A stretch of DNA of 64,000 bases. Source: Eledone cirrhosa. Lineage: Eukaryota. The stretch spans positions 46,934,001-46,998,000 of the forward strand of contig OZ024749.1 in NCBI GenBank assembly GCA_964016885.1, written 5' to 3'. The position numbers and the translations under genes are program-made. This document shows positions 52,547 through 53,852 of this stretch, in pieces. The first letter of the stretch is position 1, and every line of letters begins with the position of its first letter. The notes under the pieces were generated by a model, which worked only from the letters and a program-made list of their open reading frames with translations, searched no databases and had not been told where the DNA came from.

Positions 52547-52881
52547 ACTATTATATATATATATATATATATGTGTATATATATATTTATATATATATAT
52601 AAAAGACGTAAAATAAGAAAATATTTAAAAAAAAAAAAAAAAAAAAAAATTTTTTACTTACTTACTTAAATTTTCACTCCAACTAATTAGTTTCTGCAAT
52701 GGGATAAACTAGCCTCTGTGTCACGTGATTGATTCTTTAGAATCGGCCATTTGACCTGAAGCAGTGAGAATTTCGGTACATAGAATCCAGTCCTCGCCAG
52801 CTGTTCGATCTACCGAATTATTATTATTTTTATATGAGCCGCCAGTGTCCGCGCATTGCCTGGAGACTTAACTGAGAATAG

Positions 52882-52963
52882 ACTCCCTGATGACGTAATG
52901 AATTCTCGACAGTTGGATTATGTAACTGTCTTTATCCCATTGCAGAAACTAATTAGTTGGAGT
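52882..52963 (+). ncRNA. type I hammerhead, copy 1
   Basis: ACTCC CTGATGA cGTAATG..GACAGTT/AACTGTC..CATTGCa GAAA CTAATTAG TT GGAGT. Confidence 0.82.
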
Positions 52964-53440
52964 GAAAATTTAAGTAAGTAAGTAACAAATTTTTTTTTAA
53001 ATTTTTTAAAAAAATATTTTCTTATTTTACGTCTTTTATATTATTGTTCTGCATTCTCCTGCATTGAACCACCTAGGTACTATGACATAACCTGTGTATT
53101 TGCTAGCATGGGCGTGCATCTGTGCGCTTATGTTAGTTGATATATTAAATTATCTATATTTATCTCCAAATCATTGATTTGTCGAGCAAACTTGCCAAAA
53201 CCACTTCTAAAAAAATGTTTTGGGGTGTTAGTAGGCGTCAGTCATCTTACCATCCCATTCCTTCTAACTAGCCTCTGTGTCACGTGATTGATTCTTTAGA
53301 ATCGGCCATTTGACCTGAAGCAGTGAGAATTTCGGTACATAGAATCCAGTCCTCGCCAGCTGTTCGATCTACCGAATTATTATTATTTTTATATGAGCCG
53401 CCAGTGTCCGCGCATTGCCTGGTGACTTAACTGAGAATAG

Positions 53441-53522
53441 ACTCCCTGATGACGTAATGAATTCTCGACAGTTGGATTATGTAACTGTCTTTATCCCATT
53501 GCAGAAACTAATTAGTTGGAGT
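53441..53522 (+). ncRNA. type I hammerhead, copy 2
   Basis: Identical to 52882-52963, 559 bp downstream. Confidence 0.82.
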
Positions 53523-53852
53523 GAAAATTTAAGTAAGTAAGTAAAAAAAAAAAAAAAAAAAAAATTTTTTAAATTTTTTTAAAAAATATTTTCTTATTTT
53601 ACGTCTTTTATATTATTGTTCTGCATTCTCCTGCATTGAACCACCTAGGTACTATGACATAACCTGTGTATTTGCTAGCATGGGCGTGCATCTGTGCGCT
53701 TATGTTAGTTGATATATTAAATTATCTATATATATATATATATATATATAATTATAACAATAATAATAATAATAATACCGAAAGCACCGATTCTTTGCTT
53801 AAACTGTAATGTTTTATTTTAATAAATATTATCTATATATATATATGTATAT

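Follow-up and report, generated by a model that had tools for sequence, protein, structure and literature searches.

A young hammerhead repeat of Eledone cirrhosa, very probably a non-LTR retrozyme mobilised by Penelope-like elements

An inverted, two-armed insertion with two hammerheads

The stretch of DNA analysed here (the window) spans 64,000 nucleotides of Eledone cirrhosa contig OZ024749.1 and holds a compact insertion between a left (TA)n target tract, delimited from the sequence at 52552..52601, and a right one at 53712..53750. An inverted short arm on the minus strand (52597..52708), which corresponds to unit positions 225-335, carries the 3′ half of a hammerhead and ends at a short site, S, meets the 559-bp plus-strand unit 1 (52707..53265) head-to-head, the first 2 nt of the unit overlapping the arm. 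A partial unit 2 (53266..~53735, plus strand, unit positions 1-457) follows and ends at a long site, L. Both outer ends adjoin (TA)n, and because the target is (TA)n no target-site duplication is readable. Units 1 and 2 differ by a single substitution outside the A/T homopolymer tract (52864 A / 53423 T), which confirms the tandem 559-bp units described in an earlier, sequence-only reading of this DNA; that reading nevertheless took 52598..53730 as a plain tandem, whereas its first part, 52597-52708, is an inverted copy.

We found no ATG-initiated ORF longer than 35 aa starting inside the element and no stop-to-stop frame of 60 aa lying wholly inside it, in agreement with the earlier claim that it holds no ORF of 60 aa or more; two frames of 62 and 68 aa enter it from the TA flank. 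The element has neither an LTR layout nor protein-coding content, as befits a retrozyme, and lacks the ORF for reverse transcriptase (RT) plus GIY-YIG endonuclease between terminal repeats that marks an autonomous EN+ Penelope-like element (PLE). On the plus strand, unit 1 carries a block conserved across subfamilies in alignments (52719..52735), which contains a CACGTG palindrome and is a candidate promoter element, followed by an extended type I hammerhead (52866..52979) and an internal copy of the 'tail' (53041..53163) that runs from S (~53041) to L (~53159-53163) and includes a long hairpin at ~53093-53144; a second extended type I hammerhead lies in unit 2 (53425..53538, plus strand). Other repeats surround the insertion. 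A piece of a Hydra-like PLE terminal repeat (53778-53840) adjoins its right (TA)n, and a second, unrelated hammerhead element with U.U at the stem II base and a palindromic stem III occupies ~53900-54290 on the minus strand, its family forming a 431-bp tandem in another sampled locus (L099). On the other side lie two copies, 89% alike, of a 197-bp repeat that may be SINE-like (52145-52545) and, at 40186-43441, broken reverse transcriptase and endonuclease frames of LINE type.

The hammerhead cores lie at 52887 and 53446, both copies have a 5-bp stem I and a palindromic stem III, and the predicted cuts, after 52958 and 53517, are 559 nt apart, as expected from the earlier account of two identical hammerheads in register. 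In hammerhead 1, stem I (52882-86/52959-63) is prolonged by an outer stem I (52866-73/52973-79), the core occupies 52887-93, a C.A mismatch (52894/52944) separates it from stem II (52895-900/52938-43), and stem III spans 52948-57. The motif shows the CUGANGA core, GAAA, UH, three stems and opening at stem I of a type I hammerhead, together with a GUU triplet, which is slower in cleavage than GUC. In place of the standard stem II closing pair beside the core (G10.1-C11.1 in PMC4209133) it has C.A and then G-C; by its motif the hammerhead is a variant of the canonical form, not a canonical one. An Rfam search returned no hammerhead match for the element or for four relatives. The A of the C.A mismatch is retained across the family (13,041 versus 94 matches genome-wide). 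The mismatch and the GUU triplet had been called atypical, and the stem II closing pair is indeed non-canonical, but on sequence grounds both are family traits rather than oddities of this copy. The window copy has a stem II U.G wobble where its family has C-G.

Across 27 variants, 92.6% of the cells in the proposed fold are paired, rising to 98.8% in stem II, where one position shows four pair types. None of 500 shuffles scored as high for covariation, a result that is not a probability because the sequences are related, and slid controls scored lower; we count this apparent covariation of the ribozyme fold as a sign of selection on the ribozyme. A further 5-bp pairing joins the stem I bulge strand (52874-52879) to the stem II internal loop (52902-52907), within 52874..52907 on the plus strand. 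It is kept at 91.9% among these related sequences, with double changes at two pairs, and cognate bulge/loop duplexes have a predicted energy of −4.85 kcal/mol versus −3.91 for permuted ones; bulge and loop likely form a pseudoknot. Predicted energies are −168.9 kcal/mol for a cis double hammerhead, −159.1 for two monomer folds and −173.0 for the free fold, so that the proposal of stems III pairing in cis gains from a double hammerhead predicted to be about 10 kcal/mol more stable than two monomers. Dimer cleavage is described for hammerheads with palindromic stem III (PMC4209133, PMC6765202), and for the present hammerhead cleavage is predicted, the cis dimer being the form that should cleave most readily.

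A dispersed family with two fixed 3′ ends

Searches of the 3.0-Gb assembly with a 17-mer of the hammerhead motif gave 13,041 matches and none for the reversed control, so the motif is not a chance one; this also disposes of a single-copy locus, which the sequence-only reading had named as a refuting case. A pattern at the short end S had 13,003 genome matches, and two 32-mers of the 559 type had 1,178 and 606. With the window unit as query, the best 39 scored of 2,179 candidates contained 174 matches, full units being 95-99% identical. Thirty tandem units from unbiased loci (one false unit was excluded besides) fall into at least ten subfamilies, with units of 521-559 nt that are 69-89% identical to the window unit. 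Insertions of the superfamily sit in (TA)n, and contigs of three other public runs, which have no bearing on expression, also contain the family. The family is dispersed and multi-copy, and the window element is one young copy of this abundant non-coding mobile repeat.

Insertion structure was read in two samples. The first comprised 130 loci, namely 39 best matches to the window unit, 29 to a 525-nt sister family and 62 picked by motif and taken in order along one chromosome; the second comprised 72 further loci chosen by short-end S patterns, its subfamily-A part being the first 23 of 29 new places listed. Arm 3′ ends are fixed at S (unit position 335) or L (~453-457) and 5′ ends are variable, and in each of the ten subfamilies the two sites stand 115-118 nt apart and flank a predicted long hairpin. 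Both ends could be classed at 104 two-armed insertions: 102 combined S with L, two were L+L and none was S+S (66/68 in the first sample; 36/36 in the second, which was picked by S-site pattern); 18 further two-armed loci had no end class. Arms reach six units in length, either arm may be a multimer, and 51 of 84 arm junctions in the first sample overlap by 1-8 nt.

An inverted, 5′-truncated arm with the tail at one end only, the mark of PLE mobilisation, was found at 102 of the 104 classed two-armed loci. PLEs form partial tandems with an inverted truncated arm and a 30-40-bp tail at one end, at (TA)n targets (PMC8557442, PMC3846280), and in vitro both strands are cleaved and extended by an anole PLE protein, which starts at two internal RNA sites bounding the tail (PMC11167929). 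The S/L rule would read naturally as one RNA start site per DNA end; the two-armed shape looks like a Penelope-type footprint, and the RNA was likely copied from two fixed start points. The inverted arm and these two putative priming sites, both overlooked in the sequence-only reading, tell more than any other feature.

We searched for an autonomous partner. At 128 loci no arm ran into a PLE ORF, the 1.68 Mb of retrieved loci, which include many PLE families, contained no autonomous element whose terminal repeat is related, and a ten-subfamily profile run over the masked loci returned two more pieces of the family only. Three PLE families considered as partners, a Hydra-like one, a young and presumably Neptune-like one and a third, were each rejected on an unrelated terminal repeat. 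PLE families, Hydra-like, Neptune-like and others, abound in the genome, and frames in some of them span 741-1,217 aa. The Hydra-like PLE, so labelled from motifs in PMC8557442, has 68,456 candidates genome-wide; it left a GIY-YIG endonuclease remnant in the window (61463-62008, minus strand), and Hydra-like frames of 741-745 aa occur in L099 and L100. At least five more families with hammerheads were seen in L099-L108 and L170-L179, several of them mismatched at the stem II base or close to it and with a palindromic stem III. The PLE family of L140-L174, which we take to be Neptune-like, is very young: its proteins are 96-97% identical, its frames reach 1,217 aa, its candidates number ~40,000, and it has fixed 3′ ends of its own at (TA)n.

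Array formation and the form of the template

Units within a locus diverge about as much as units of the same haplotype at different loci (0.17 versus 0.21%; 0.61 versus 0.53%), and array variants comprise 96 singletons against six that are partly shared. Opposite arms of a locus differ by 0.31%, against 1.06% between loci, and at 7 of 82 loci a private allele occurs in each of the units that cover its position, at L063 in all seven units across both arms. This star-like divergence, together with alleles common to the arms, suggests that arrays mostly form at insertion; we also count the similarity of opposite arms as support for their having been copied from one template, with private alleles that span both arms requiring a one-unit bottleneck. 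Among 205 minor alleles within loci only 5 turn up again in close haplotypes, so that there is no sign of a heterogeneous master array. One exception, locus L354, is a mosaic. Of 364 segments spanning the predicted cut, 355 are identical there, with one deletion and one insertion among the rest; at most two scars in these 364 crossings and a single clear mosaic among 100 loci speak against end-to-end jumps over a nick at that site.

A 35-unit array of a sister subfamily (L317-L319, G000:C1:301308-301328 kb), which keeps its L and S ends, departs from this pattern: its variants are shared and hierarchical, a product of local DNA expansion, and nine units carry a change that breaks stem II. The array appears to be a retrozyme turning into a satellite, and its local expansion implies that arrays can regrow without a circle. 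As master of its subfamily it was rejected, its frequent variants occurring in none of the other sampled loci. A 9-unit array exists as well.

The 5′ ends of arms bear on the form of the template. In the 30 nt after the predicted cut, later passes contained 23 ends against 7.6 expected in the first sample and 8 against 3.1 in the second, in which the first pass contributed 11 ends in ~97 passes; the step across the cut was 26 versus 8 and, in the second sample, 12 versus 2. This hazard analysis was devised after the histogram had been seen, and the second sample alone is an independent replication. The first test, of ends within 2 nt of the cut, gave no signal (4/219 versus 2.0 expected), ends within 1 nt numbered 5 against 1.7 expected (p 0.03), and partner arms on the first pass in the first sample had no cut-site excess (2 ends). 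Both arms of L287 start at the cut, and in L136, L187 and L260 one arm stops at the cut and its partner runs on past it. The piling up of ends just after the cut, also on second and third passes, suggests that templates were partly cleaved and linear, some of them self-cut RNAs rather than circles. Like the covariation of the fold, this excess bears on self-cleavage indirectly.

That reading is weakened by a second pile-up, 61-83 nt upstream of the cut across all sampled loci, whose sharp upstream edge (a step of 25 versus 2 at ~82 nt) is as large as the cut step and which could be a transcription start or a pause. The homopolymer tract also gathers arm 5′ ends, and with the upstream step it means that RT pausing or joining bias could explain the cut-site excess. 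In published tests, eight of nine Xenopus retrozyme dimers failed to cleave (10.64898/2026.07.22.740005), and PLE insertion in vitro proceeded without need for cleavage, uncut RNA being the main substrate (PMC11167929).

Mobilisation, rival explanations and known relatives

The window element is very probably an animal non-LTR retrozyme mobilised by PLEs, one that works like a non-autonomous derivative of them, and the retrozyme class proposed from the sequence is supported by tandem hammerhead units, lack of coding and a dispersed family. The class itself is already known. Like the animal non-LTR retrozymes of PMC7229834 and 10.64898/2026.07.22.740005, the family consists of ORF-less tandem units with one type I hammerhead each, a GC content below 50%, a high copy number and PLEs in the genome; the window unit falls inside the 51-972 bp range of the latter source, and a mismatch at the helix II base also occurs in axolotl HHR_Amex2 (U.U). 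Circles and cleavage are demonstrated in the animal retrozymes of these two sources; for the present family cleavage is predicted and a circle proposed. Two-armed insertions, two fixed 3′ ends and (TA)n targets are, relative to the retrozyme descriptions drawn on from them, found only here. The window hammerhead is further set apart from those of animal retrozymes by its extended stem II with an internal loop, C.A, GUU and the likely pseudoknot.

With EN+ PLEs (PMC8557442, PMC3846280, PMC11167929, PMC4209133) the family shares partial tandems, an inverted 5′-truncated arm, a tail at one end, microhomology junctions, (TA)n targets and a palindromic-stem III hammerhead just upstream of internal start sites; unlike them it has no ORF, its tail measures 115-118 nt against 30-40, and both arms may be multimers. 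Chlamys non-autonomous elements such as MRC1 are likewise non-coding PLE parasites with multicopy head-to-tail insertions, but they belong to green algae, have a 3′ end like that of their autonomous partner and, as described in PMC8557442, mostly lack canonical hammerheads. Among the papers listed in a literature search, none dealt with the window family, with an S/L rule for retrozymes or with a hammerhead of this variant type; published supplements may contain cephalopod hammerheads or PLE terminal repeats.

We propose that a non-coding hammerhead tandem repeat borrows the reverse transcriptase and endonuclease of a PLE and is copied from mixed templates, an account that we rate, as a whole, slightly above even. 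The PLE enzyme would cut both strands of (TA)n. Copying would be primed by one DNA end at L and by the other at S, both sites lying within the RNA and probably within a single molecule; from each it would run along head-to-tail units until it stops, and the two cDNAs would join head-to-head over short overlaps. One kind of template would be linear read-through multimers cut at some ribozymes only, which would leave 5′ ends at the cut; the other would be a ligated circle of one monomer, from which, at some stage, a single unit would be expanded into an array again. For the mixed-template mechanism taken separately, we see the chances as evenly balanced.

Two alternatives concern what the units are. 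The tandem could be a local DNA duplication of one inserted unit, and local expansion did occur at one sampled locus, the 35-unit array, but within-locus divergence is not below that between loci, multimers stand in both inverted arms and the S and L ends are fixed, and we disfavour this reading as the least probable of all. The units could instead be terminal repeats of long coding PLEs, that is, truncated ends, which would suit the PLE-type insertion anatomy and the many PLE families with long open frames in this genome; yet units follow one another head-to-tail with no ORF between them, no arm in 128 loci reaches a PLE ORF, and the PLE ORFs examined have no related terminal repeat beside them, leaving this disfavoured reading very improbable. 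Both had been named as refuting cases for the sequence-only reading: the second fails, no sampled copy ending a PLE ORF, and the first mostly does, given the comparable divergences and the private alleles shared across arms.

The other two alternatives concern the template. Rolling reverse transcription of a covalently closed 559-nt circle, the model of the sequence-only reading, could underlie all insertions, the 5′ peaks being pauses or joining bias: crossings of the cut are nearly all identical, private alleles are fixed in both arms, no heterogeneous master array is seen, the peak at −82 means that peaks need not be cut ends, and circles are demonstrated in coral, mussel and axolotl retrozymes (PMC7229834). 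Against circles alone stand the excess of ends just after the cut on second and third arrival, at a place where a closed circle would offer none, and the start of both L287 arms there; we consider a circle-only origin distinctly improbable. The start phases of copies, proposed earlier as a check on a circle, speak for one through scarless passage and locus-private alleles and against it through that same excess. Conversely, no circle would be needed if linear read-through multimers, partly self-cut, regrew by template switching in repeats or by unequal DNA exchange, an explanation helped by the cut-site excess, by the 35-unit array with its hierarchical variants and the 9-unit array, by some partly shared variants in adjacent units and by the mainly uncut RNA that served a PLE as substrate in vitro (PMC11167929). 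It is opposed by the absence of the 35-unit array's frequent variants from the other sampled loci of its subfamily, by the star-like divergence of most arrays and by the one-unit bottleneck that private alleles in both arms need, and it seems to us unlikely, though less so than circles alone.

Mixed templates, the reading that we prefer, can be joined with the ribozyme prediction: (TA)n ends would twin-prime one RNA, and the pseudoknotted C.A/GUU hammerhead would cut in vivo as a cis dimer and set linear 5′ ends, with monomer circles rebuilding arrays. We hold this joint reading tentatively, as a possibility short of even. PMC8557442, PMC11167929 and PMC7229834 treat the origin of tandem and inverted PLE insertions, the role of the PLE hammerhead and the mobiliser of animal retrozymes as unsettled questions. 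With thousands of young copies, a near-strict S+L rule and measurable 5′ ends, this family makes twin priming, in vivo cleavage and circular versus linear templates countable from a genome, and in vitro tests could use its 559-nt unit as a small substrate. If true, the joint reading of twin priming and in vivo cleavage would assign the PLE hammerhead a function and connect the tail with the twin priming.
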